Positions 8,611 to 55,142 of a DNA stretch of 64,000 nucleotides are shown here, in pieces (the first letter of the stretch is position 1; each line of letters begins with the position of its first letter). A program made the position numbers and the translations under genes. A model generated the notes under the pieces. The model was not told where the DNA came from. It did no database searches and worked only from the letters and a program-made list of their open reading frames with translations. Source of the stretch: Pyrinomonadaceae bacterium (GTDB taxonomy: Bacteria > Acidobacteriota > Blastocatellia > Pyrinomonadales > Pyrinomonadaceae); contig JBAUGW010000063.1 in NCBI GenBank assembly GCA_049679945.1, positions 272-64,271 of the forward strand, in the 5' to 3' direction.

Positions 8611-9915
8611 ATGACAAAGAGAGACTTAACAAACGCGTTAATTGCAGTTTCGGTTGCGACCGCATCGATCGTTTTGTCGGCCTGCGGTTCAAAGGCCGAG
8701 AGTGCGAATGCGAACGCAAATAATCAGCCGACGATTGTCGATGTCGCGACGACGCAAGCCGTGGTCAGGCAGATACCTACATATTTTGAGGCGACGGGTA
8801 ATCTGGCGAGCGACGCCGCGACCGATGTTGCTCCGGCAATCGGCGGAAAGATCGTTGAGGTAAATTTTGACGTCGGCAGCTATGTGAACAAGGGCAGCGT
8901 GCTTTTGCGACTCGATTCCCGCGACGCACAGATTAGATTAGAGACGGCTCAGGCACAAGTTCAGCAGCAGCAAAAAGCGCTTGGCCAGGCAGTCGCGGCT
9001 TTGCGACAGGCGCAGGCGAGGCTCGGCGTTCGCGACGGCGAGACGTTTGATATCGACAAGTTCTCGCAGGTGAAATCGGTGAGAGCAAATCTCGAACTTG
9101 CGGAGAAGGAGCTTATTCGAACCGAGCGGCTTTACAACACGGGCGATGTTTCAAAATCTGCTCTCGATCAGCGACGTGCGCAGCGGGATGCACTACTCGG
9201 ACAACTGGACGAGGCTCGTTCTAACGCCGCCGTTGCCATAAAAGCAATCAACTCTGCCGAGGCGCAGGTTGCATCTGCGCGAGCCGCAATCACAACTGCT
9301 CAAACGCAAGTCGATCAGGCACGCAAATCATTGAATGACACGGCGGTGCTCGCGCCCATCAGTGGTTATATCTCGGAACGCACGGCAGATCTCGGTGAGT
9401 TCATAAGCCCAAGCGTGCCAAATGCAAAGATCGCGACCATAATTCGCACTTCAAGCCTGCGTTTGAAGATCGATGTTCCAGAAGCTTCGATCGGCAAGGT
9501 CGCGACCGGTCAAAGCATAAGTTTGCAAACGAGCGCATATCCCGACCGCAATTTTACCGGAACCGTCGTCCGCATTTTGCCGAGCCTCAATCAACAGGCA
9601 CGCACATTAACAGTCGAAGCCGAAGTTCCAAACGGCGACGGTTTGCTAAAACCAGGACAATTTGCGACGGTTCGCATTACGCAATCAAAACCTGAGAATG
9701 CAGTGATGATACCGGCGTCGGCCGTAAAAGCCGAGGGCGATGTCAGCAAGGTTTACGTAGTTAAAGACGGCGCTGCGCGCGAGCGACTCGTCCAACTCGG
9801 TTTGCTCGAGGGTGAAAGTATCCAAGTAAAACAAGGGCTAAACGAGGGCGAGCTGATAGCGACGAATAATCTTGCGGAGCTGTACGACGGCGTACTAGTT
9901 CGCGTTGCAAACTAA
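8611..9915 (+). CDS. efflux RND periplasmic adaptor (MFP/HlyD family)
   Basis: Lipoprotein-like signal (LSAC), a long coiled-coil hairpin, and beta-barrel motifs (VLAPISGYISER). Confidence 0.9.
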   Translation: MTKRDLTNALIAVSVATASIVLSACGSKAESANANANNQPTIVDVATTQAVVRQIPTYFEATGNLASDAATDVAPAIGGKIVEVNFDVGSYVNKGSVLLRLDSRDAQIRLETAQAQVQQQQKALGQAVAALRQAQARLGVRDGETFDIDKFSQVKSVRANLELAEKELIRTERLYNTGDVSKSALDQRRAQRDALLGQLDEARSNAAVAIKAINSAEAQVASARAAITTAQTQVDQARKSLNDTAVLAPISGYISERTADLGEFISPSVPNAKIATIIRTSSLRLKIDVPEASIGKVATGQSISLQTSAYPDRNFTGTVVRILPSLNQQARTLTVEAEVPNGDGLLKPGQFATVRITQSKPENAVMIPASAVKAEGDVSKVYVVKDGAARERLVQLGLLEGESIQVKQGLNEGELIATNNLAELYDGVLVRVAN

Positions 9916-10373
9916 GTTCCAAGTTGCAAGTTCCAAGTTCCAAGGCATGGGTTTATGGCGAGATTTGAACGATTTGAAGAGATAGAAGGGTGGAAACTGG
10001 CGCGGCAAGTGACGAACCAAGTGTACGAGCTCAGTTCTGCTCCTGAATTCAGCCGAGATTTTGCGCTCGTAAATCAAATGCGCCGTGCATCAGTTTCAAT
10101 TATGTCGAATATTGCCGAAGGTTTCGAACGAGATGGCAACAAAGAATTTCTTCAATTTCTTTCGATAGCAAAGGGTTCGTGCGGAGAAGTGCGTTCCCAG
10201 CTATACGTTGCACTCGACAGAAAATACTTAGACGATAGACGATTTCATTCGGTCAGCTCGTTATTGATCGAAACATCAAAAGTGCTCTCAGGTCTAATGA
10301 AATATCTGAAACAGTCTGAAGAACGAGGGCGAAAATTCAAATAACTTGAAACATGGAACTTGAAACCTGGAAC
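9916..10373 (+). mobile_element. hairpin-bounded cassette carrying a four-helix-bundle gene
   Basis: Inverted heptamer-repeat arms at 9916-9945 and 10345-10373 (25/29 complementary by hand). They bracket the CDS at 9955-10344 and fill the MFP-RND gap exactly. Confidence 0.55.
9955..10344 (+). CDS. four helix bundle protein (23S rRNA intervening-sequence protein family)
   Basis: 129 aa. WKLARQVTNQVYEL...QMRRASVSIMSNIAEGFERDGNKEFLQFLSIAKGSCGEVRSQLYVA matches the family consensus as I recall it. Confidence 0.9.
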   Translation: MARFERFEEIEGWKLARQVTNQVYELSSAPEFSRDFALVNQMRRASVSIMSNIAEGFERDGNKEFLQFLSIAKGSCGEVRSQLYVALDRKYLDDRRFHSVSSLLIETSKVLSGLMKYLKQSEERGRKFK

Positions 10374-10382
10374 TAGATAGTT

Positions 10383-13300
10383 ATGCAGTGGTTAGCCGAA
10401 GTTTGTGTAAAGCGTCCTGTGTTTGCGACGATGCTGATCTTGTCGCTGGTCGTAGTCGGCGCGTTTTCGTTTCTGAGTCTCGGCGTCGATCTGTTTCCAA
10501 AGATCGACTTTCCGACGATCACAGTCACGGTCGTGAATCCCGGAGCGTCGCCGCAGGAGATCGAGACCGAGATCACCGAAAAGATCGAGGAGGCCGTCAA
10601 CACGATCAGCGGCATCGACGAATTGCGTTCGACATCGATCGAAGGCATCTCGCAAGTGTTTGTGCAGTTCGTGCTTGAGAAGGATGTTAATGTCGCCGCA
10701 CAAGAGGTCGAGAATCGCGTTCAGACCGTAATTCCAACCTTGCCGCAGACCGCTAAACAGCCGACTGTTCAAAAACTCGACACCGATGTCGCGCCGATCT
10801 TGCGTGTTTCGATTTCGGCGCCACGCTCGCTTCGCGAAGTCACTGAGACCGCAAAAAATAAAGTCAAGGAACGCATCGAGTCGGTAAACGGCGTCGGCCA
10901 GATCACGATCATCGGCGGCGTCGACCGGCAGATAAATGTGTGGGTCGATCCCGACAAGATGCGCTCCTATAACGTGACGCCGGCTGAGATCTCGGGCGCG
11001 CTTGCCGTGCAGAACATGGAGTTTCCGAGCGGAAGACTCGATGAAGGCCAAAAAGAAACGAGCGTTCGCACCATCGGGAAAATTCAAAAGGCTGAGGAAT
11101 TTAACGACCTCATCGTCGCAAATCGCGGCGGTTATCAAGTAAAAGTAAAAGATCTCGGCTATGTCGAGGACGGAGCCGAAGAGGCGCGTTCTGAAGCTCG
11201 TTTGAACGGACAGCCGGCCGTGACGCTAATCGTCTCAAAACAATCGGGACAAAATACCGTCGCCGTCGCACGCGAGATAAAAGAGCGACTCAAAGAGATC
11301 GAGCCGACTATGCCAAAAGATTTTCAGATGCGCATTATCGGCGACAACTCGATCTTTATCGAGAACAGTTTGCGCAATATCGAGGAGCACTTGATCGTCG
11401 GCTCAATCCTTGCGGCGATAGTGGTTTTTTTCTTCCTGTGGAATTTCCGGGCAACGTTCATCGCCGCAATAGCGATCCCAACCTCAATTATTTCAACATT
11501 TGCCCTGATGTATGCGATGGGTTACACGCTCAACTCGATCACGATGTTGTCGCTCACGCTGATGGTCGGCATCGTGATCGACGACGCGATCGTCGTACTC
11601 GAGAACATCTACCGCTTTGTCGAAGAGAAGGGCATGAACCCGTTTCAAGCCGCGATCGAAGGCACGCGTGAGATCGGCCTTGCCGTGCTGGCGACAACGC
11701 TTTCGCTGATGGCGGTGTTCGTTCCGATTGGTTTTATGCAGGGCATCGTCGGCAGATTTATGTCGTCGTTCGGGCTGACGGCGTCGTTCGCGGTCGCGGT
11801 TTCGCTGATCGTTTCGTTCACGCTGACGCCGATGCTCGCCGCGAGGCTTATTAAGAAGTCCAAAGTCCAAGGTCCAAAGTCCAAAGCCGTTAACGACGAA
11901 ATCCACGGAGACGGAATGTTATCGGAGGACGAGAAACCCAGGACTTTGGACATTGGCCATGAGACTTCGGACTCGCATTATACCGGCTGGTTTAGACGTG
12001 TCGACGGTGTTTACGCGTGGCTGCTGCGCTTTTCAATGTCGCATCGCTGGGTGATCGTCACGCTTTGTGCTCTTGTCTTTTTGAGCATTGTGCCGCTGTT
12101 TATGTTCGTCGGCAAAAACTTTTTGCCGGTCGATGACCAATCGCAATTCGAGATATCGGTTCGAGCGCCCGAGGGTTCGAGTCTCGGACAAACTTCGCAG
12201 ATCTTTGAGCAGATCGCGTCCGAGATTCGCAAGATTCGCGGCGTAACCGACACGCTCGCAACGGTCGGCGGCGGCCAGCAGCAAGTCGTCAACGCCGGCA
12301 CGATTTACGTCAAATTGTCCGACATAAAGACGCGCCCAAAATCGCAGGAGCTAATGATGGATGATGCGCGTGAGCTGTTAAAACAGTTTCCACCGGAGCT
12401 GCGAACCGGCGTTCAGCAGGTGCAGGCGTTCTCGGGCGGCGGTTTTCGCAACGCGAACGTGCAGTTCCTGATTGCCGGACCTGACATTGCAAAGTTAACG
12501 GAATACTCGGAAAAGATCGCCGCGAAAATGAAGACGGTTCCCGACGCCGTCGATGTCGATTCAACACTCATCGGCGGCAAGCCCGAGGTGCAGCTCGAAG
12601 TCGATCGTGACACGGCGGCCGATCTCGGCGTTCGTGTCGGCGATGTTTCACAGGCGCTCAACACTCTGATCGCGGGCCAGCAAGCTACGACATTCAACCA
12701 GGGAACCGACCAATACGAAGTGCGAGTTCGCGCGATCAATACATATCGCACGAGTATCGAGGGATTGAAACGCGTGATTGTTCCATCGACAAAACTCGGT
12801 TGGGTGACGCTCGACCGTGTCGTAAAAGCAAAGAGCGGCACCGGCCCGAGCGCCATCGACCGCACAAATCGCCAACGCCAAGTCACGCTGCTTGCCAACA
12901 CGCGTCCCGGCGGTTCGGCGGCGAGCATTACGGCCGCGATCGACAGTTACATCAAAGAGCTAAATCTTCCCACAGGTTATCGCACCGGTTACGTCGGCCA
13001 GTCGAAGGAGATGGGCAAGGCTGGATTTTATTTTCTGCTCGCGTTCGCGCTGTCATTCATCTTTATGTACATCGTGCTCGCCGCGCAATTCGAGTCGTTC
13101 ATTCACCCGGTGACGATCTTGCTGACGCTGCCGCTGTCGGTGCCGTTTGGGATTTTGAGCCTTTTGGTTGCGGGACAAACCGTGAACATCTTTTCCGGTC
13201 TCGGCCTGCTGCTGCTCTTCGGCGTCGTTAAGAAAAACGCGATCTTGCAGATCGATCATACGAACACGCTTCGATCACGCGGAATGTCGCGTTACGACGC

Positions 13301-13616
13301 GATCATCCAGGCAAATCGCGACCGTCTGCGCCCCATCCTTATGACTACGATCGCTCTCGTCGCCGGAATGATACCGCTCGTCGTAGGCTCGGGCGCCGGA
13401 GCCGGAACAAACCGTTCGATCGGAACGCTTGTCGTCGGCGGACAAACTTTGTGTTTACTCCTCACACTGCTGGCCGTGCCGGTTTTCTATTCGATATTCG
13501 ACGATCTCGCCGAGCTGCGTTTGTTTAGATACGTCAACCGTTTTGCAACCTCGCTCTTTGGCGGGTTAAAGCGACGCGTGGCAACGGCGACAAACTCAAT
13601 ATTCAGTAAACAATAA
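10383..13616 (+). CDS. efflux RND transporter permease (AcrB/HAE family)
   Basis: 1077 aa. Twelve-TM layout with two large periplasmic loops and a conserved N-terminus ([20 protein letters not shown]). Confidence 0.95.
11858..11972. repeat. heptamer-repeat inverted arms (GTCCAAA units) inside the RND CDS
   Basis: Left arm GTCCAAAGTCCAAGGTCCAAAGTCCAAAG (11858-11886). Right arm GGACTTTGGACATTGGCCATGAGACTTCGGAC (11941-11972). 54-nt spacer. Read in frame as SKVQGPKSK...[11 protein letters not shown]. Confidence 0.65.
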
Positions 13617-16634: not shown

Positions 16635-16709
16635 ACAAACGTCGAGCGCAGCCAAACTTTATCATAGCCCCAAAAGTGATGTAAATACTTTTTTGTTTCG
16701 ACAGATTTA

Positions 16710-16875
16710 GCCACGAATGCACGAATGAATCGGAGTCAGTTCAAATTTTGTGGTGCTTTGCGTGCTTTGCGGCTTCGCGTGATAACAATGTGGTTTCACG
16801 CAAAGACGCTAAGATCGCAAAGTCTCGAACAGCATTAACGCCACATGCTCTGCTTTTTATTCGTGCATTCGTGGC
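16710..16875. repeat. nested empty double hairpin (CACGAAT arms enclosing GCAAAG arms)
   Basis: Outer arms are GCCACGAATGCACGAATGAA (16710-16729) and TTATTCGTGCATTCGTGGC (16857-16875). Inner arms are 16756-16782 and 16796-16822 (about 21/27 complementary). No ORF inside. Confidence 0.8.
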
Positions 16876-16913
16876 AAATTTCTTTAGCGACTTGGTAAAA
16901 TAAAATTCCGTTT

Positions 16914-17984
16914 ATGCTTTACCGCGAATCGTTTTTTATCACAGGCTTTCCGGGCTTTATCGCAAGCCGGCTTGCCGAGCAGCTAGTCGGGCCAGAGCGG
17001 CAGATGTTTCTGCTCGTCGAGCAGAGGTTCGTCGAGCTAGCGATGGAAGAGGTTGAGCAGATCGCCGAAGCCACCGCAACCCCGCTCGATAATTTTGTGA
17101 TCGTCGAGGGCGACATCACGCTGCCTAAGCTCGGAATCTCGGACGCCGATCTCGAGGTGATTCAAATCGAGACTACCGATATCTTCCATCTTGCTGCAGC
17201 GTACGATCTCGCAGTGGCGAAGGACATCGCGTTTGATGTAAATCTTCTCGGTACGCGGCACGTGAACGATCTTGCTTGTTCGATAAAAAATCTGCGGCGA
17301 TATCATTATGTCTCGACTTGTTACGTCGCCGGAAAACGGACGGGACAGATTCTCGAAACAGAACTGGAACACAGCGCCGGTTTTCGCAACTTTTACGAGG
17401 AAACAAAATATCTCGCCGAGCAAGAAGTTGAAAAATTAAAAAGCCACTTGCCGGTGACGATATATCGTCCGTCGGTCGTCGTCGGGGATTCGCAGACCGG
17501 CGAAACCGCAAAGTACGACGGCATATATCATTTGATCCACTATTTGCGAATGGCGCCTTTCCTGCTGCGCGTCGTAAACGTCGGCAACAACGACGTGCGA
17601 CTCAATCTCGTGCCCGTCGATTTTGTCGTCGATGCGATTGCAACTTTGGCATTCGATGAAGCGGCGCTCGGCAAGACGCTTGCGATCGCCGACGCCGCGC
17701 CGCTGACGACCGCTGAACTTTTTGACGTGCTTGCAAAAGAACTAACTGGCCGCAAATCCGAGTACACGCCGCCGACAAAAATTGTCGAGTGGTTTCTCAA
17801 CTTATCGATCTCGCCCGCGCTCACCGGCCTGCCAAATCACGGCGTGCCGTACTTTTTTCTCTCGCAAAATTACGATACGAGCATCGCCGACGAGCTTCTG
17901 AAAAAACACGACGTAATCTGTCCGCGATTTCAAGACTATGCCGGCAACTTGCTCGATTTTGTCGATGAGTTTCCGAAGCTTTGA
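16914..17984 (+). CDS. SDR-family NAD-dependent reductase (thioester/acyl reductase-like)
   Basis: N-terminal ITGFPGFIASRL Rossmann motif and a YEETK catalytic YxxxK. Confidence 0.8.
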   Translation: MLYRESFFITGFPGFIASRLAEQLVGPERQMFLLVEQRFVELAMEEVEQIAEATATPLDNFVIVEGDITLPKLGISDADLEVIQIETTDIFHLAAAYDLAVAKDIAFDVNLLGTRHVNDLACSIKNLRRYHYVSTCYVAGKRTGQILETELEHSAGFRNFYEETKYLAEQEVEKLKSHLPVTIYRPSVVVGDSQTGETAKYDGIYHLIHYLRMAPFLLRVVNVGNNDVRLNLVPVDFVVDAIATLAFDEAALGKTLAIADAAPLTTAELFDVLAKELTGRKSEYTPPTKIVEWFLNLSISPALTGLPNHGVPYFFLSQNYDTSIADELLKKHDVICPRFQDYAGNLLDFVDEFPKL

Positions 17985-18004
17985 TTTCATTGCGTTAATC
18001 GCAG

Positions 18005-18045
18005 CTTTGCGTGAGATTTCCCGCAAAGACGCAAAGACCGCAAAG
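18005..18045. repeat. GCAAAG-class repeat/hairpin
   Basis: CTTTGCG...CGCAAAG stem followed by ACGCAAAGACCGCAAAG tandem units, just after the stop at 17984. Confidence 0.55.
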
Positions 18046-18080
18046 CAAATGAATTCAAGTTTCGAGCATCATACTGCCGA

Positions 18081-19214
18081 ATGTTATTTAAGTCTGTATC
18101 TATAAAGACATTATTTTGTCTCGGTTTAATGGCCACCTCAGCGATTCTTGCTAGTGCGCAGAGTGGTCGCATTACTGCGACGCCGACCGCGACGCCGCCG
18201 GACGAAACTCTGCGAATCGACACCGAGGAGATCAAATTAAATGTCCTCGCATTTGACGAACGCGGCGAATTTTTTCGCGACGTGACTGCAAACGACCTCG
18301 TCATTTCAGAGAACAATATTCTGCATCCGCCGACGAGTGTGCGTCGCATTGCTGCAAATGTTTTGATAGTGATGGACACGGGCGGCGAACTCCGCAGCGT
18401 AAAAACTCTGGACCAAACACGAAAGGTAGCACGCGGCGTAGTTGAGAGTTTACGTCCGGGCGACTCGTTTTCCCTCATTAGTTACGCCGACAAGGCTGAG
18501 GTCGTCGGCGAGTGGACAAGCGACAAACAGCAAGCGCTCGCCGCGATAAAGCGGACGAATTTTGGCCGCCGCTCGGTCTTTGTCGATGCACTGAAACTCG
18601 CGACCGTTTTTTTGGAACGCTCAGGGCTCGATAACAAACACCTTGTCTTAATAACCGACGGCACCGACAGTCTCGGACGCTCGTCGCAGAAATTCGACGC
18701 GTTGCAGCGGCTGATGGCGACAGACGTCAGCGTTCATGTGATCAGTTACACCTCGATGGAAGCGGTTGCGATTGAGCCGCGAACCAAACGGACTTCGACG
18801 ACTCCGCCGCCTAAAGCTCTTCCGCCGGAGGTCGTCGATCAATTGCCTAACGACGTTAAGATCGCTGCCAAACGCCCAAAGATCGGCCCGACCATCAACA
18901 TGGACCGCACGCTGATCAAACGCATGAAAGCTCGCAAGGCCGAACTCGAAGCCGCACAAGAACAGCTCGAAAAGCTCGCCGAGAACACGAACGGCGAATT
19001 CATCCTGCCCGAAACCGTTGACGAAATGGTCGAGAAAGCCTCGCTTGTCGCACGCATGATCGACTCGTCATACGTCGTCACCTATATGCCAAAAATTTCC
19101 GTCGCCGAAACCCGAGGGCTAGCCGAGCGTAACATCGAGGTCACCTCAAAACGCCCCGGCCTCATCGTGCAGTCTCGACGCAAGCTGCTTATTCAGGCAG
19201 AAAAGAAGAATTAG
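18081..19214 (+). CDS. secreted VWA domain-containing protein
   Basis: Signal peptide, and a vWA core with a MIDAS-like VLIVMDTGGE...LISYADKAEVV...LVLITDGTDS. Confidence 0.85.
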   Translation: MLFKSVSIKTLFCLGLMATSAILASAQSGRITATPTATPPDETLRIDTEEIKLNVLAFDERGEFFRDVTANDLVISENNILHPPTSVRRIAANVLIVMDTGGELRSVKTLDQTRKVARGVVESLRPGDSFSLISYADKAEVVGEWTSDKQQALAAIKRTNFGRRSVFVDALKLATVFLERSGLDNKHLVLITDGTDSLGRSSQKFDALQRLMATDVSVHVISYTSMEAVAIEPRTKRTSTTPPPKALPPEVVDQLPNDVKIAAKRPKIGPTINMDRTLIKRMKARKAELEAAQEQLEKLAENTNGEFILPETVDEMVEKASLVARMIDSSYVVTYMPKISVAETRGLAERNIEVTSKRPGLIVQSRRKLLIQAEKKN

Positions 19215-19286
19215 CCACAGATGAACACGGATAAACTCAGATCAAGTTATTGATCTTATCTGTTTCCATCTGTGTTTATCTGTGGC
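19214..19286. repeat. CACAGAT-class hairpin between convergent genes
   Basis: GCCACAGATGAACACGGATAA ... TTATCTGT..CATCTGTGTTTATCTGTGGC. Likely a bidirectional terminator. Confidence 0.7.
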
Positions 19287-19294
19287 AAATATTC

Positions 19295-19780: not shown

Positions 19781-19787
19781 AAGAACT

Positions 19788-20195
19788 CGCCACAGAGAAC
19801 ACAGAGGTCACAGAGAAATGCGCTTAACTCCTTCGCGGAGCATCTTTGCGCCAAAGTTGATTAAGAGCCCACGTTTAAGACCGGTTGCTTTTAGATAAGA
19901 CAGAATCTGGGCGGTTGAGACGTCGGGGAGTTTACTGAGTGATTTGATCTCAACTATCACTTCTTCTTCAACGAGTATATCGATCCGCTGGCCTTTAATA
20001 ACTTTGTCTTTGTAAATGACATCTATCTCAAGCTGTCTCGAATAACGAATACCTCGCAAATCGAATTCATGACAAAGAGCTTCTTCATAAATCGACTCGA
20101 GCAAACCCGGACCGAGTGTTCAGTGAACTTCGATAGCTGCACCAATGATCTTCTGCGTAAGTACATCGTTTTCCTTCTCTGAGTTCTCTGTGGCG
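19788..20195 (-). mobile_element. hairpin-bounded cassette carrying a GxxExxY-family gene remnant
   Basis: Arms are CGCCACAGAGAACACAGAGGTCACAGAG (19788-19815) and CTCTGAGTTCTCTGTGGCG (20177-20195). 18/19 complementary over the shared part. Confidence 0.55.
19808..20173 (-). pseudogene. GxxExxY protein (PD-(D/E)XK-like) with in-frame TGA
   Basis: The track ORF starts at an internal TTG (LESIYEEALCHEF...). Reading upstream in the same frame gives ENDVLTQKIIGAAIEVH-TGA(20120-20122)-TLGPG, which is the family N-terminus. No in-frame ATG was found. Confidence 0.7.
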
Positions 20196-20197
20196 AA

Positions 20198-24731: not shown

Positions 24732-24739
24732 ACCAAGCT

Positions 24740-24878
24740 CTCCTCCTTACGAAGGAGGAGTCCGGCTTTAGCCGGGAGGTGGTTCTTTGGTCAGCAAGAT
24801 TCTATGTCTGCTAACAAAAGAACCACCCCGTCATCCCGACAAAGACGTCGGATGCCACCCCTCCTTTGTAAGGAGGGG
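24740..24878. repeat. symmetric multi-hairpin palindromic element
   Basis: Hairpins at 24740-24760, 24762-24775, a long stem 24778-24788/24817-24827, then about 24835-24851 and 24858-24878. The two ends are near reverse complements of each other. Confidence 0.7.
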
Positions 24879-24916
24879 AGCCTTTTTCTAACTTAAATTA
24901 CTTGTCGGACTTCTCT

Positions 24917-25795: not shown

Positions 25796-25874
25796 CACCA
25801 CAGAGCCACAGAGAGTGCAGAGACCACTGAAAAAAACAAAGCAATTCTTCGATGTTCTCTGTGGGCTCGGTGGC
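25796..25874. repeat. CACAGAG-class hairpin between convergent genes
   Basis: CACCACAGAGCCACAGAG ... CTCTGTGGGCTCGGTG. The right end overlaps the stop codon of the M20 peptidase gene. Confidence 0.65.
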
Positions 25875-30339: not shown

Positions 30340-30561
30340 GTCGCCAACGGCGACGGACATTAAAGCCTAGGGTAGAGTGAGCATCGCGAACGGCACCCTA
30401 GGACTGGTTGGAAGATTGATTCCGACGCTGAAGGCGTCGAACAATTTGCGGCGTGGTTGTTCTTCCCCTTCAGGGAAGGCAATTTGGTCGGGCATTTTCC
30501 TAGGGTTCCAATCGCGTCGCTCTTTGCACCCTAGGCTTTAATGTTTGTCGCCGTTGGCGAC
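30340..30561. repeat. MITE-like element with 34-bp terminal inverted repeats
   Basis: GTCGCCAACGGCGACGGACATTAAAGCCTAGGGT (30340-30373) against the reverse complement of 30528-30561 is 32/34 identical. Internal hairpins CGACGCTGAAGGCGTCG and CTTCCCCTTCAGGGAAG. No ORF inside. Confidence 0.8.
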
Positions 30562-33678: not shown

Positions 33679-33693
33679 ATTGTTAGGAGTTTA

Positions 33694-33777
33694 AACGCAA
33701 AGTCGCAAAGTCGCCAAGACGCAAAGAAACCTAAATAACAAATCTTTGCGGCTTATGCATCTTTGCGACTTTGCGTT
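33694..33777. repeat. GCAAAG-class hairpin, perfect 17-bp arms
   Basis: AACGCAAAGTCGCAAAG (33694-33710) and CTTTGCGACTTTGCGTT (33761-33777). Further GCAAAG/CTTTGC pairs lie inside. The right arm overlaps the radical SAM gene stop codon by 2 nt. Confidence 0.8.
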
Positions 33778-34825
33778 AAAAAAGTCTTTGCTGAAGTGCA
33801 ACCGGTGCAGTTTCGATCTCGACCGATTTTTCGCGCTGATTAAAACCAAGCCGCTCGGCGTGAAAATTAAAGAGTTTTACTGTCATGTCCCACTGCTCGG
33901 TTTTGCCAAGCCCTCGTTCCTTGTACGTGCGATGACGAAGCGTACCGTTGCGCTCGCGTTTTATCGTGTTGATGATCTTCGCCACGCGTGTCGGCGGCAG
34001 GCGTTCGTGCATTTTTTGGACAAAATACTCCTCGATCGAATCGGTATCGAGATGCAGCATCGACATAAACGCACGCGTCGCCCCGCAATCTTTTGCCCTC
34101 TCTAACAGACCCGGAATGTCTGATTCGTTATATCCGGGAATTACGGGCGCAACACCGATGCCGACGGGAATACCGGCATCGGCAACCGCTTTCATGGCGC
34201 GAAAACGCGCTTCGGGGACAGGTGTGTATGGTTCGAAGGGATTTGATTTTTCCTTTGTGAGAAACGGCAGCGAGAAAAATACGGTGACCTTGTTCAGCTT
34301 TTTTAGAATATCGATGTCGCGCGTCACAAGCGGCGATTTTGTGATGACGGCAACCGGCACGCGAAACTCGGCGCAGACTTCGAGGCATTGGCGCGTGAGT
34401 TTGTATTCGGCTTCGAGCGCGATGTACGGGTCGGTCGCGAAAGAAAAATCGAGATGCGGCATTTTGTCACGGCACTTTTTTAACTCAGCGCGCAACAATT
34501 GCGGAGCGTTTGGTTTTACCACGATCTTTGTCTCAAAATCGGTTCCGGCGCCGTAGCCGAGATATTCGTGATACTGCCGAGCAAAACAATATGTACAGCC
34601 GTGAACGCAGCCGCGATAGCAGTTAACCGTGTAACGCCAGCCACCTTCCCAGTCGGACGAGAATGCTTTAGTAATAATTTTTTTTGTCGCGGTCTCTTCA
34701 AAGATCTCGAGCTTTGTCGGCGGCGGCTCGCCGATGTACTCGGCTGAATATTTGTTGTAGGGATTTGGCGGGTTTTTGATGTGTCGCACAGATGAAACGA
34801 TAGTCCATCGTCGGGCAAAGTGCAA
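33776..34825 (-). CDS. radical SAM protein (PA0069/SplB-like family)
   Basis: CVHGCTYC (CxxxCxxC) cluster. Start uncertain: TTG at 34825, with a GTG 12 codons downstream also possible. Confidence 0.85.
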   Translation of the reverse strand: MHFARRWTIVSSVRHIKNPPNPYNKYSAEYIGEPPPTKLEIFEETATKKIITKAFSSDWEGGWRYTVNCYRGCVHGCTYCFARQYHEYLGYGAGTDFETKIVVKPNAPQLLRAELKKCRDKMPHLDFSFATDPYIALEAEYKLTRQCLEVCAEFRVPVAVITKSPLVTRDIDILKKLNKVTVFFSLPFLTKEKSNPFEPYTPVPEARFRAMKAVADAGIPVGIGVAPVIPGYNESDIPGLLERAKDCGATRAFMSMLHLDTDSIEEYFVQKMHERLPPTRVAKIINTIKRERNGTLRHRTYKERGLGKTEQWDMTVKLFNFHAERLGFNQREKSVEIETAPVALQQRLF

Positions 34826-37217: not shown

Positions 37218-37243
37218 AAAGTAAACTGAGTGTCAGTAGTATC

Positions 37244-37319
37244 GTGTCCGTAGCCCCCACGTAAGTAAGGGCTATCGTGGCTCCACAGGAGCCCTTACTT
37301 ACGTGCGGGCTACAGACAC
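37244..37319. repeat. 30-bp-stem hairpin in a divergent promoter region
   Basis: GTGTCCGTAGCCCCCACGTAAGTAAGGGCT (37244-37273) against the reverse complement of 37290-37319 is 28/30. 16-nt loop. Confidence 0.8.
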
Positions 37320-37357
37320 TACATTTTAGACAGCATATCGGCATAAGGCAACGTAAA

Positions 37358-43811: not shown

Positions 43812-44711
43812 TTATACCAAAACGATCTTCGGACGAATAGATTTTTCCTCCGCGTCGTAGAATCCGACGGCGATCAGATTTTGCTTTTCGTCCACCATAC
43901 TCACCGCTTCATTGTCAGCAAACTGCGCTTCGTGCACCCGCGTAGAAAGCCCGCTCTTTGTTTTCTCAACTCGCGTCGCGTCTAAAATTATCGACGGCAG
44001 ATGCCCGACGGCGATTTCTTTTGGTAAAAGAGCGGTTGACGGATCGGCGTGCTGCTCTAATTCGTCGAGCGTCGCGCTTTGTGATAAATCGAAACATCCC
44101 GCTCGCGTGCGACGCAGTTCTGCGAGATGGGCGCCGACACCGATAGCTCGGCCAATATTTTCAGCGAGCGTGCGGATGTATGTTCCCGCAGAACACGCCA
44201 CTCGAAGCCCCATGTCCAAAGTCCCGAGTTCCAAGGTTTCAGTTAATTCACTTGTGATCTCAAGTTTAGAAATCGTGACTGTCACAGCTTTACGTTCGAT
44301 CTCGATACCTTTGCGGGCATGTTCATACAGCTTTTTCCCCGCGACCTTTTTCGCCGAAAACATCGGCGGAACCTGCTCGATCACTCCGAGAAACTGCGGC
44401 AAAACGCCAACTACATCATCCTCCGTTATCTGACTTTGCCTTTTTACTTTTTCCTTTTGGCTTCCGGTGCGATCACCGGTATCTGTCTCAAAACCAAACC
44501 GCACAACAGCTTCATACTCTTTTTCGTCTTTGTCGAGAAACTGCGCGAGTCGAGTTGCCTTACCAACAACCACGACCATCACGCCGGTCGCAAACGGATC
44601 GAGCGTTCCGGTGTGGCCGACACGGCGGGTTTGCAAGATTCGCCGTACGCGATTTACAACATCGTGCGATGTTATTCCCGCGGGCTTATCGATTATGAGT
44701 ATGCCGTCCAT
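43812..44711 (-). CDS. truB: tRNA pseudouridine(55) synthase
   Basis: GILIIDKPAGITSHDVV...GHTGTLDPFATG catalytic Asp motif. Confidence 0.95.
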   Translation of the reverse strand: MDGILIIDKPAGITSHDVVNRVRRILQTRRVGHTGTLDPFATGVMVVVVGKATRLAQFLDKDEKEYEAVVRFGFETDTGDRTGSQKEKVKRQSQITEDDVVGVLPQFLGVIEQVPPMFSAKKVAGKKLYEHARKGIEIERKAVTVTISKLEITSELTETLELGTLDMGLRVACSAGTYIRTLAENIGRAIGVGAHLAELRRTRAGCFDLSQSATLDELEQHADPSTALLPKEIAVGHLPSIILDATRVEKTKSGLSTRVHEAQFADNEAVSMVDEKQNLIAVGFYDAEEKSIRPKIVLV

Positions 44712-49623: not shown

Positions 49624-49776
49624 GGCTTGCCGTCTATTTGCGGAAAAGCTCTGCTTTTCCGCCAAATTCAAATCATTTATTGAGGCTGTGCCTCCGCTGA
49701 TAGGCGGCGCAGCCGCATTTGTTTTTAGTCAATCTTTCGGTGAAGCACAGCTTCACCGCAAATAGAGCGGCAAGCC
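49624..49776. repeat. multi-hairpin palindromic element
   Basis: Outer arms are GGCTTGCCGTCTATTTGCGG and CCGCAAATAGAGCGGCAAGCC. Inner hairpins are GCGGAAAAG..CTTTTCCGC and GGTGAAG..CTTCACC. Confidence 0.75.
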
Positions 49777-53802: not shown

Positions 53803-53816
53803 GACAAGACCCGTTG

Positions 53817-53879
53817 GCCACGAATGAACACGAATAGCACGAATAAGATCAAATCGTGTTATTCGTGTCCATCCGTGGC
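53817..53879. repeat. CACGAAT-class hairpin between convergent genes
   Basis: GCCACGAATGAACACGAATAGCA against the reverse complement of TGTTATTCGTGTCCATCCGTGGC is about 20/23. Likely a bidirectional terminator. Confidence 0.75.
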
Positions 53880-55075
53880 TAATTCCTCTTCTTTCTTAAT
53901 GTAACCAGTATCGCATCGCCCACCTTTCTCTCGCCTTCTTTGTCTGACGGACGATTGACCACTTTGCCGTCGAGAAACATCGTCGTCGAGCCGCCGCCGT
54001 CGAGATTCATCGCGTCCATCGCACCAAGCTCGAGCATGTATTTTGCGAGATCGTAAAGATCAAGCCCCGCACTCTGCTCCGTACGTCCATCGACCGTTAT
54101 CATCAGAAATTTGCCGTCTTTCAACTTCGCCACCGCCGTGCGCGGATGCCGCGTCTCGACAAACGACTTCGACGCCTTTTCCTGCTCCCAGGTAATATCG
54201 ATCTTGCCGTTTTTGATAAGCTGCGGAACGCCAGCAACAATATCTTCTGCTTCAGGAAAGAAACTGTTCTTTGGGGCCGGAAGCGGTCCGATACCGATAA
54301 CAACTCTTAGATCGACCCTCTCCTTCACGTGGTAAAGGATATTATTGGACTTTTCTAGAGCGTTCTTCCCAATCGAGATAACATAGCCACCTGTCGGAAT
54401 TACCGAATTTCCTTTGCCATTGGAAATCTCAGCCTTAAAGCACCTTTTCTGCATTCCGTTATTCGCGCAATCTCTGAGAATCAATTCCGTTCCGCTATCG
54501 TCGGTCAGTGTAGTGCGGTTGAAATCGGGCGTGTATAGAATAATCTCATCAATTTTCCGCTCACGATTCACACCCGCAAACCAGAATTCAGTATCGACGC
54601 CAAACCCGACGACGCTAATGGAATGGAGGTGTCCAAACTTTGCTTCTGTCTTGTCCTTTTCGTTTGCGATAGCGAGTGCGACTCGATTGTTGGTGCTTTC
54701 GCTCAATAACTTGTGATCAATCATCAAGACACCTGCCGCATCGCCTGCCCAGATACTGTTGTCGAGTCTGAAAAACCCCGCATTTATCGCCGCGAATGCA
54801 CTGTGGCGCGTGGCGATGGACGAGGTTTTTTCCGTGCCGATGGCCATGTCCATTGCGTGGTGGACGTCGAGACGGACTTTTTTTAGATCGAGGCGGAGAA
54901 GGTTGATATTGACGGGCTTACCGCTGAATTCACGCGCTACTCGCGCATACTCAACGCCGTCGGCGACGGCTTTCCACTCCTGAGCGAAGATATTCACCAC
55001 AGAGGCACAGAGAACACAGAGGGTAAAAATCAGGCGGGTTGGTCGAACTGACGGTTTATTTAAATAGAATTTCAT
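53879..55075 (-). CDS. phosphodiester glycosidase (NAGPA/DUF2233) family protein, secreted
   Basis: The start at ATG 55075 gives a signal peptide MKFYLNKPSVRPTRLIFTLCVLCASVVNIFA. C-terminal NLDGGGSTTM motif. Confidence 0.8.
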   Translation of the reverse strand: MKFYLNKPSVRPTRLIFTLCVLCASVVNIFAQEWKAVADGVEYARVAREFSGKPVNINLLRLDLKKVRLDVHHAMDMAIGTEKTSSIATRHSAFAAINAGFFRLDNSIWAGDAAGVLMIDHKLLSESTNNRVALAIANEKDKTEAKFGHLHSISVVGFGVDTEFWFAGVNRERKIDEIILYTPDFNRTTLTDDSGTELILRDCANNGMQKRCFKAEISNGKGNSVIPTGGYVISIGKNALEKSNNILYHVKERVDLRVVIGIGPLPAPKNSFFPEAEDIVAGVPQLIKNGKIDITWEQEKASKSFVETRHPRTAVAKLKDGKFLMITVDGRTEQSAGLDLYDLAKYMLELGAMDAMNLDGGGSTTMFLDGKVVNRPSDKEGERKVGDAILVTLRKKRN

Positions 55076-55120
55076 GTTTCTTTTGGCTTTCTCCGTGATC
55101 TCTGTGCCTCTGTGGTGAAT
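54992..55120. repeat. CACAGAG-class hairpin enclosing the start codon of the glycosidase gene
   Basis: Perfect 21-bp arms ATTCACCACAGAGGCACAGAG (54992-55012) and CTCTGTGCCTCTGTGGTGAAT (55100-55120), with partial extension. The loop contains the ATG at 55073-55075. Confidence 0.85.
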
Positions 55121-55142
55121 TCCTTTTATAATAACTAAGAAA

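Follow-up and report, generated by a model that had tools for sequence, protein, structure and literature searches.

Inverted tandem-heptamer arrays read in frame in the TM6-TM7 loop of an RND efflux pump gene from a Pyrinomonadaceae bacterium

Genetic organization of the efflux operon and its in-frame hairpin

The window analysed here is a stretch of 64,000 nucleotides from a Pyrinomonadaceae bacterium (GenBank assembly GCA_049679945.1, contig JBAUGW010000063.1, positions 272 to 64,271 of the forward strand) and shows an efflux operon with the gene order TetR regulator, membrane fusion protein (MFP), a small gene, RND permease and outer membrane factor (OMF). The RND gene contains a hairpin that is read in frame, made of two inverted arrays of tandem heptamers and located between the regions encoding transmembrane helices 6 and 7 (TM6 and TM7). 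Gene and hairpin are distributed as follows, with positions counted from the first nucleotide of the window:

10383 to 13616, forward strand: RND efflux permease of the HAE1/AcrB family, 1077 amino acids (aa) (PF00873, E = 8e-284).
11857 to 11886, forward strand: left arm, 4.4 tandem heptamers (A)GTCCAA(A/G), from Tandem Repeats Finder (TRF), the inverted-repeat search and the sequence.
11887 to 11940, forward strand: 54-nt "spacer", the ancestral loop core homologous to E-I-x-GDGM-I/L-E of all orthologues, from loop and nucleotide alignments.
11941 to 11973, forward strand: right arm, degenerate inverted heptamers GGACTTT GGACATT GGCCATG AGACTTC GGACT, from the sequence, the inverted repeat and the fold.

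A preliminary description of this DNA, made from its letters alone, had proposed a heptamer arm at 11858-11886 (GTCCAAAGTCCAAGGTCCAAAGTCCAAAG) and an inverted arm at 11941-11972 (GGACTTTGGACATTGGCCATGAGACTTCGGAC) separated by 54 nt, and the sequence, TRF and the inverted-repeat search agree on this anatomy; the segment lies in frame in the 1077-aa open reading frame (ORF) and its translation is exactly as that description gave it. TRF shows a period of 7 with 4.4 copies and 91% matches at 11856-11886. Two pairings were found by the inverted-repeat search: 11857-11886 with 11944-11973 (30 nt, 80% complementary) and 11855-11882 with 11941-11968 (28 nt, 82% complementary). The heptamer-dimer pattern has five matches in the window, against 0.43 expected, and none of 100 shuffles reaches five. 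Folding of the mRNA, which had been suggested as a check, gives -44 kcal/mol for 11850-11980; dinucleotide shuffles average -29.3 +/- 3.8 (z = -3.90) and not one of 200 folds as well, so that the complementarity is better than in shuffled controls. These controls, on the heptamer-dimer count and on the fold, rule out an artefact of chance or composition. An assembly artefact is ruled out by the same or similar hairpins in independent NCBI, ENA, JGI and Logan assemblies; a public Pyrinomonadaceae metagenome-assembled genome has the identical pump protein on record, and close variants are found in independent assemblies. The covariance models of Rfam 15, at the gathering threshold, show no match anywhere in the window.

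Alignment to MdtB, AcrB and other RND pumps places the hairpin in the cytoplasmic linker that runs from TM6 to the amphipathic helix before TM7, a site that the preliminary description had recognised and that is short in characterised pumps. The linker of the window pump is composed of 46 residues of low complexity, and that of solved RND pumps is about 14-25 aa shorter: residues 115-157 of the query used in this alignment match about 14 residues of MdtB, and AcrB has 21 residues fewer over the aligned region. The hairpin can be read through in frame because three heptamers equal seven codons and GTCCAAA is free of stops in all frames; a perfect right arm, (TTTGGAC)n, would read F-G-L-W-T-L-D. 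At the outer ends (AAG/AAGTCC on the left and GGACTC/GCAT on the right) no target-site duplication is visible; the junctions are unclean and the arms overwrite ancestral codons. Only one other array of GTCC type is present in the 64 kb of this genome, in truB at 44214-44238.

Ancestral loop core and overwritten codons

The loop was compared in 120 orthologous proteins (82-100% identity) and 80 species-level genome loci, about 90 loci in all. The basic loop of the orthologues is 30-33 aa long; its core E-I-x-G-D-G-M-(I/L)-E and its end S-D-S-H-Y-T-G-W-F are conserved, and most orthologues have no arms. At the nucleotide level, the window core GAAATCCACGGAGACGGAATG aligns with GAAATCCGCGGTGACGGCATG of the hairpin-less locus L083 (loci of relatives are given by L numbers), and in this alignment the window has two separate additions and not one contiguous insertion. 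Since the spacer encodes the core common to all orthologues, the arms are two additions around ancestral sequence. The net gain over the nearest hairpin-less orthologues is 13 aa. A single contiguous indel of 39 aa, which the preliminary description expected an alignment of homologues to reveal, is thus ruled out, the middle of that 39-aa stretch being ancestral, and with it falls the proposal that the whole piece is an empty member of a hairpin family. The loop is not shared in its armed form by relatives that lack the inverted repeats: the hairpin-less orthologues are without the arms themselves. As for the proposal that the element was "domesticated or tolerated", in-frame tolerance holds and domestication shows no sign, the right arms of L078 and L057 having been rewritten. 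Cargo within the loop, or a split pump, was found at none of the roughly 90 orthologue loci, and all 80 genome loci contain continuous ORFs.

The right arm includes the D-S codons that precede H-Y-T-G-W-F. These codons are GAY-AGY in 31 of 32 loops without an array, and each of the 15 loops that have a right array reads GAC-TCN; in the window they are GAC-TCG and lie within the right arm, which, on this codon comparison, has overwritten the ancestral pair.

Recurrence and exchange of the loop hairpin in relatives

Complementary arrays at both edges of the loop recur in relatives with different units. The pair GTCC(C/A)AA / TTTGGAC is shared by the window, L001, L081, L084 and L086; the others are GTCGCGA / TCGCGAC in L082, GAGTCGG / CGACTCA in L087 and L088, GTTCCGA / TCGAAAC in L089, and GAGTCNG / AAGACTC in L070 and L071. 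Their fold energies go down to -60 kcal/mol. Other loci are in states that resemble precursors or products of decay: one array alone stands on the left in L085 and on the right in L024, L034 and L054, and pairs without complementarity are present in L016 and also in L078 and L057, whose right arm AAAGGAC keeps just the GGAC core, its units having become hydrophilic and no longer complementary. The hairpin of L086 is compact: its spacer measures 22 nt and lacks the GDGM core. The arrays of the window, L001, L081, L084 and L085 differ in how many units they contain and in the register in which these are read, and in a neighbour-joining tree of the pump the hairpin states are scattered among hairpin-less relatives. 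Matched arms give -33.2 kcal/mol and mismatched arms -26.8 (permutation p = 1e-4; 13 lineages, not fully independent). The outermost stem is AGTCC...GGACT in the window and AGTCG...CGACT in L001; both changes are synonymous, and that from GGACT to CGACT needs a TCG-to-AGC serine switch.

The L081 gene is 95.6% identical to that of the window, with about 100% identity in the flanks and 64-82% in the loop, and its loop is 89-95% identical to that of L084, from which it otherwise differs at 20% of positions (80% identity). On these identity profiles the hairpin module moves between lineages by homologous recombination, and therefore counts of "independent gains" should be read with caution. A second mosaic tract, 450 nt downstream of the loop, contains no arms; the exchange therefore needs no special mechanism.

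L073 (4325-4531) shows a loop of 69 aa that contains a strong non-heptamer hairpin (-89 kcal/mol, z = -5.7) and a right-hand array of AAATCGC heptamers; here the loop has been entered by a palindrome of another kind.

Strand asymmetry of the mismatches

For each hairpin, the left arm was aligned to the reverse complement of the right arm and the mismatches were classed on the coding strand. The 13 pump hairpins, whose lineages are not fully independent, show 7 G·U against 33 A·C mismatches (p = 4e-5), and all 13 would fold more stably on the antisense strand (mean -51.7 kcal/mol, against -45.0 for the sense strand). T-to-C changes in the right arm remove hydrophobic residues and give rise to A·C mismatches, and a bias towards A·C means that mRNA pairing is not being preserved. 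Other arms of this type behave differently: those of the intervening-sequence protein (IVP) cassettes described below lean weakly in the opposite direction (29 versus 21; sense -44.7 and antisense -41.7 kcal/mol, p = 0.02), and in cargo-less spacer hairpins the mismatches are symmetric between strands. The pattern in the pump fits protein-level erosion of a DNA-level repeat and not selection for mRNA structure. The alternative in the preliminary description, an RNA-level element inside the coding sequence, is disfavoured by the same mismatch counts, by the better antisense fold and by the lack of an Rfam match in the window.

The neighbouring IVP cassette

The small gene between the MFP and RND genes is enclosed by heptamer arms of its own:

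9914 to 9944, forward strand: left arm of the IVP cassette, (AAGTTCC)x4.4, beginning at the MFP stop codon (TRF, inverted repeat).
9955 to 10344, forward strand: cassette cargo, a 129-aa four-helix-bundle / 23S rRNA intervening-sequence protein, Avd-like (PF05635, E = 1e-34; TIGR02436, E = 6e-34).
10345 to 10374, forward strand: right arm, inverted heptamer array ending 8 nt before the pump ATG, 87% complementary to 9915-9944 (complementarity and cassette fold).

The preliminary description had noticed 1.5 kb upstream a hairpin of the same kind as that in the pump, and this is borne out: (AAGTTCC)x4.4 and its 87% complementary inverted copy surround the 129-aa gene. A second IVP gene was looked for in the window and none was found. 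The four-helix-bundle / IVP family is homologous to Avd, the accessory protein of diversity-generating retroelements (PMC10053308).

The MFP-RND spacer was surveyed in 72 orthologous operons and shows three states: empty spacers of 1-30 nt; cargo-less hairpins of 50-117 nt, seen in about 20 species, with arms of tandem units of about 7 nt and of many sequences; and cassettes of 448-505 nt that contain an IVP gene, about 15 with that of the window counted. Intact junction cassettes were scored in 14 relatives and the window (two more tblastn hits are fragments), and all 15 contain 3-6 tandem GTCCAAA, GTTCAAA or GTTCCAA units and their inverted copies, with the first array at the MFP stop codon and the inverted array ending about 10 nt before the pump ATG. 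Among metagenomic IVP genes (51-65% identity), 68 of 72 have complementary flanks (duplex dG <= -25 kcal/mol); of 47 clear cases, 44 have arms with a period of 7, and the unit seen most often is GTCCAAN. L001, with a pump 93% identical to that of the window, has the GTCCAAA unit in its cassette as well as in its loop hairpin. By this comparison the arms within the pump gene, tandem inverted heptamers of about 4.4 copies of the GT(C/T)C(C/A)AA family, are of the same kind as the arms of IVP cassettes, and their unit GTCCAAA is the one most frequent in such cassettes, among relatives as among metagenomes. Loop hairpins and junction IVP cassettes occur in the same operon at roughly 8/18 versus 11/~50 by hand count, which is not significant and was not used.

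The operon of L081 (pump 97% identical in protein and 95.6% in nucleotides) contains no IVP cassette and has a 15-nt spacer in its place, and in L001 the IVP is just 68% identical to that of the window and the arms are different (GTCCAAA). Such differences between close operons show that the IVP cassette is mobile on short time scales. At the junctions of L082 and L086 a solo right arm is all that is left of the cassette. Two IVP genes, L013:2435-2821 and L071:2421-2807, contain an internal stop codon and have intact heptamer arms; arms can therefore outlive their cargo.

The gene junctions of the pump operon are general insertion hot spots. Other cargo is present at junctions of relatives (L087:780-1435, L084:4690-5112, L088:4800-5165 and L089:4748-5215): between MFP and RND, a gene encoding a PIN-domain protein together with one of 72 aa; between RND and OMF, unannotated genes of 121-155 aa. 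The MFP-RND spacers of L037 and L062 contain unidentified inserts of 468 and 682 nt.

truB and the copy number of heptamer arrays

The only other GTCC-type array of the window belongs to a second pair of arms that is read in frame, in the housekeeping gene truB:

43812 to 44711, reverse strand: truB, host gene of the in-frame arrays.
44214 to 44238, reverse strand: right arm TTGGAAC TCGGGAC TTTGGAC, encoding E-T-L-E-L-G-T-L-D, one side of a long-range pair.
44430 to 44465, reverse strand: decayed left arm, encoding S-Q-K-E-K-V-K-R-Q-S-Q, about 276 nt upstream in the coding sense.

The truB arms were read from a protein alignment and four DNA sequences. Orthologues show a left segment S-P-K-S-Q-V-Q-S-P-K-S and a right segment D-L-G-L-G-T-W-D-L-G-L, about 85 codons apart; the arms, about 280 nt from each other in the DNA, surround the catalytic core and the pair is conserved across the family. 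The duplex of the window gives only -28 kcal/mol, against -44 to -68 in orthologues: L092 has GTCCCAA / TTGGGAC (-67.8 kcal/mol), the arms of L090 give -43.6 kcal/mol, and in L091 the matched units are wholly unlike these, GCGGAAT / ATTCCGC (-53.5 kcal/mol). When an arm of one unit type is paired with an arm of the other, the duplex gives just -14 to -23 kcal/mol; mixed arm pairs are also found in truB. Arms around pre-existing conserved coding sequence are thus a recurring outcome and not a peculiarity of the pump.

A census of tandem arrays in about 0.96 Mb of Pyrinomonadaceae and metagenome DNA shows that arrays with a period of 7 far outnumber other tandem repeats. They contain 4.x copies in 152 of 356 arrays, 3.x in 54 and 5.x in 22, with a median length of 30 nt, and the peak at about 4.3 copies (~30 nt) is alike for IVP-flanking arms, empty hairpins and arrays within coding sequences.

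Other repeats of the window

One more cassette with tandem arms is present in the window:

19787 to 20196, reverse strand: GxxExxY-protein cassette (TIGR04256, PD-(D/E)XK-like, 98 aa), with inverted tandem CACAGAG-NN arms at 19787-19817 and 20177-20196.

Its ORF matches the model from position 21 only and may be truncated at the N-terminus. Hairpins of tandem units nearly fill seven spacers (16707-16878, 17990-18047, 19210-19290, 25798-25870, 33690-33781, 53814-53882 and 54987-55125), several of them between convergent genes; their arms are made of 7-9-nt units (CACGAAT-N, CACAGAG-N and CGCAAAG-N), and an SDR-family gene (16914-17984) is flanked by two hairpins with the GCAAAG unit. Further long inverted repeats, non-tandem, lie at 30340-30561, 37231-37332, 49633-49766 and 24737-24881, and include 64-nt arms, 83% complementary and 94 nt apart, and a 50-nt near-perfect palindrome between divergent genes.

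Origin of the in-frame hairpin

The hairpin consists of two inverted tandem-heptamer arrays that carry no cargo, are read in frame and sit at either edge of a permissive TM6-TM7 loop. The reading that we prefer, with a probability of about one half, is that of a tolerated DNA-level repeat structure, produced by heptamer slippage and template switching and eroded by protein-level selection. Replication slippage on local seed codons would first produce a heptamer array on one side of the loop; a replication template switch would then write its reverse complement onto the opposite side, replacing ancestral codons there while the ancestral core stayed in place between the two arms. Afterwards the module would be maintained, reshaped and spread by more slippage, by template switching between arms and by homologous recombination between lineages. 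It would be tolerated as 13 added residues of hydrophilic linker that the ribosome reads through, and selection on the protein would erode the T-rich right arm, a perfect copy of which would encode F, L and W. At this single locus the hairpin is probably without function for the pump, an absence that we infer. Slippage with template switching accounts for the core having stayed ancestral, for the replaced D-S codons, for arms that match unit by unit and for paired changes of several bases, and allows the single-array alleles to be read as precursors. Template switching itself is consistent with the co-variation of the units, with the change between AGTCC/GGACT and AGTCG/CGACT and with the overwritten D-S codons.

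Several points weigh against this reading. No template-switch event could be reconstructed between a sampled ancestor and its descendant. The sharp peak at about 4.3 copies is not predicted by unconstrained slippage and hints at a length requirement, such as the footprint of a protein or of RNase III, or at an arm installed as a unit. Template switching over the ~280 nt of truB exceeds the usual range, and repeated complementary arms at the same two sites could reflect an active element-linked mechanism or selection for pairing. The lineages in the arm-matching and mismatch tests are not fully independent. The A·C bias could come purely from amino-acid selection, and it excludes strong selection for mRNA pairing but not every RNA-level effect.

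The foremost rival, which we hold as a tentative and rather unlikely alternative, is an active mechanism linked to IVP cassettes that installs a heptamer array of about 30 nt and its reverse complement around an arbitrary pre-existing segment. The segment so enclosed could be a selfish gene, a spacer between genes or a portion of a coding sequence, with the pump loop and truB as in-frame products of this mechanism and not of random slippage, and the mechanism would act in Pyrinomonadaceae and perhaps in other IVP-rich phyla, making in mRNAs IVS-like modules (IVS, intervening sequence) potentially excisable by RNase III or bound by IVP. The sharp 4.3-copy optimum, the repeated appearance of different complementary units at the same two sites and the universal association of arms with IVP genes favour it over neutral mutation.

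It is less probable still that the mRNA stem is a functional element, an RNase III or ribosome pause site that tunes pump expression or separates the synthesis of the two halves. The stable sense fold, the uniform arm length of about 30 nt, the truB arms kept across the family, the weak sense-strand preference of IVP cassette arms (p = 0.02) and the RNase III cleavage of Coxiella IVS stems, which have an S23p ORF and heptamers (PMC4990558), speak for such a role, but in the pump loop A·C mismatches outnumber G·U, every lineage folds better on its antisense strand and Rfam gives no match. Moreover, the arms are absent from most orthologues, several loci have one arm or non-complementary arms, and cleavage within the coding sequence would destroy the message.

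Doubtful, too, is a role of the arm pair as a landing pad or recombination module, with same-unit arrays allowing exchange with IVP cassettes or alleles. It would agree with the swap of the hairpin module between lineages otherwise 80% identical, with the IVP cassette being polymorphic between operons 96-97% identical and differing more than the pump does (68% IVP against 93% pump identity), and with the mixed arm pairs in truB; against this, another mosaic tract lies 450 nt downstream and has no arms, so that ordinary recombination suffices, and among the roughly 90 loci the loop contains no cargo and the pump is never split.

We consider very unlikely a derivative of the IVP cassette that resembles a miniature inverted-repeat transposable element (MITE), non-autonomous and transposed into the loop as one piece in the manner of the Rickettsia palindromic elements (RPE). 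The arms are of the IVP-cassette type and of canonical length, cargo-less hairpins of 50-117 nt are present in the MFP-RND spacer of about 20 species together with solo-arm remnants, L086 has a compact hairpin without the GDGM core, and in-frame palindromic elements are known (PMC10969869). For the window copy it is nevertheless refuted by the ancestral loop core, which lies between the arms here and in most hairpin-bearing relatives; in addition, in truB the arms stand on either side of a catalytic core of 280 nt, the unclean junctions show no visible target-site duplication, and units differ between lineages at the same site.

Finally, that the extra residues are a selected flexible charged linker with incidental nucleotide symmetry is hardly credible: the frame is kept, the residues are hydrophilic and the loop is long and variable across the orthologue group, but the peptides are wholly different between lineages while nucleotide periodicity and complementarity recur, the period of 7 nt passes through all three reading frames, a mark of the nucleotide level and not of the protein, and the segments are missing from most orthologues.

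Inverted tandem-heptamer arms are a general terminal structure of IVP cassettes within ordinary operons and not just in rRNA. The same kind of arm also occurs cargo-less and in frame within genes, around conserved coding sequence, and has arisen repeatedly, with units that differ but are always matched. The locus thus exposes a widespread, poorly described repeat system tied to IVS-protein cassettes, and offers a densely sampled system in which template switching and selection can be weighed as the origin of long perfect stems. It also bears on what mobilises IVS/S23p elements, for which we know of no mechanism having been established since the 1990s. Such arrays make low-complexity protein segments that evolve fast, are exchanged by recombination and can mislead orthologue alignment and indel inference, and they may render the affected mRNAs sensitive to double-strand RNases.

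Comparison with known systems

IVS elements with S23p ORFs and inverted-repeat stems, and the in-frame read-through of Rickettsia palindromic elements, are known separately. Paired, co-varying heptamer arms in frame around coding sequence, and heptamer arms as general ends of IVP (or GxxExxY) cassettes in operons, were found in no account of the literature searched, and the nearest matches for heptamer-armed cassettes or in-frame arrays are only the Coxiella IVS heptamers and the four-heptamer elements of Geobacter.

The IVS of the Coxiella 23S rRNA, with a homologous S23p ORF, shows a 28-bp terminal stem containing 3-4 tandem heptamers, the number of which varies with the strain, and is cut by RNase III within this stem (PMC4990558). 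The window hairpin resembles the S23p IVS of the Leptospira, Coxiella and Xanthomonas type in its long terminal inverted repeat, with a stem of about 28-30 bp, and in the tandem heptamers of the stem, 4.4 copies of GTCCAAA here. It differs in having no PF05635 ORF, with the core of the host pump between the arms, and in lying in protein-coding sequence and not in rRNA helix 25 or 45; RNase III excision from the pump mRNA would be harmful.

Rickettsia palindromic elements are hairpin-forming repeats that are read in frame and add a peptide to a permissive part of a housekeeping or transport protein (PMC10969869). In the same way the window hairpin is read through and lengthens a permissive stretch of a transport protein. 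RPEs are contiguous elements of about 100-150 bp with conserved sequence, whereas the arms of the window are lineage-specific heptamers around ancestral sequence; compared with an empty site, the hairpin is not the contiguous insertion that defines an RPE or a MITE.

Among the long simple sequence repeats (LSSR) of bacteria the heptanucleotide class is the commonest, and it has been attributed to slippage of the polymerase (summary in PMC4679880); the "four tandem heptanucleotide repeat" elements of Geobacter metallireducens lie within and between genes (PMC2700814). With the LSSR of the Mrazek type the window arrays share the period of 7, about four head-to-tail copies and a copy number that varies among relatives, and the arms of about 30 nt have the same size as the Geobacter four-heptamer elements and the 28-bp stem of the Coxiella IVS. 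Those LSSR and Geobacter elements are described as single direct arrays; here the arrays are complementary, co-varying inverted pairs that bracket genes or coding segments.

Template switching can make perfect stems in a single step, can restore the pairing of stems already present, and acts in coding sequences (PMC8794818; PMC8604942). The window hairpin is similar to template-switch quasi-palindromes in that these are imperfect inverted repeats whose arms are made or homogenised by block reverse-complement copying, and different from them in its arms, since tandem-repeat arms of about 30 nt, 54-280 nt apart, are not typical of that class. IVS stems, heptanucleotide arrays and in-frame palindromes are thereby joined in this locus and its relatives.

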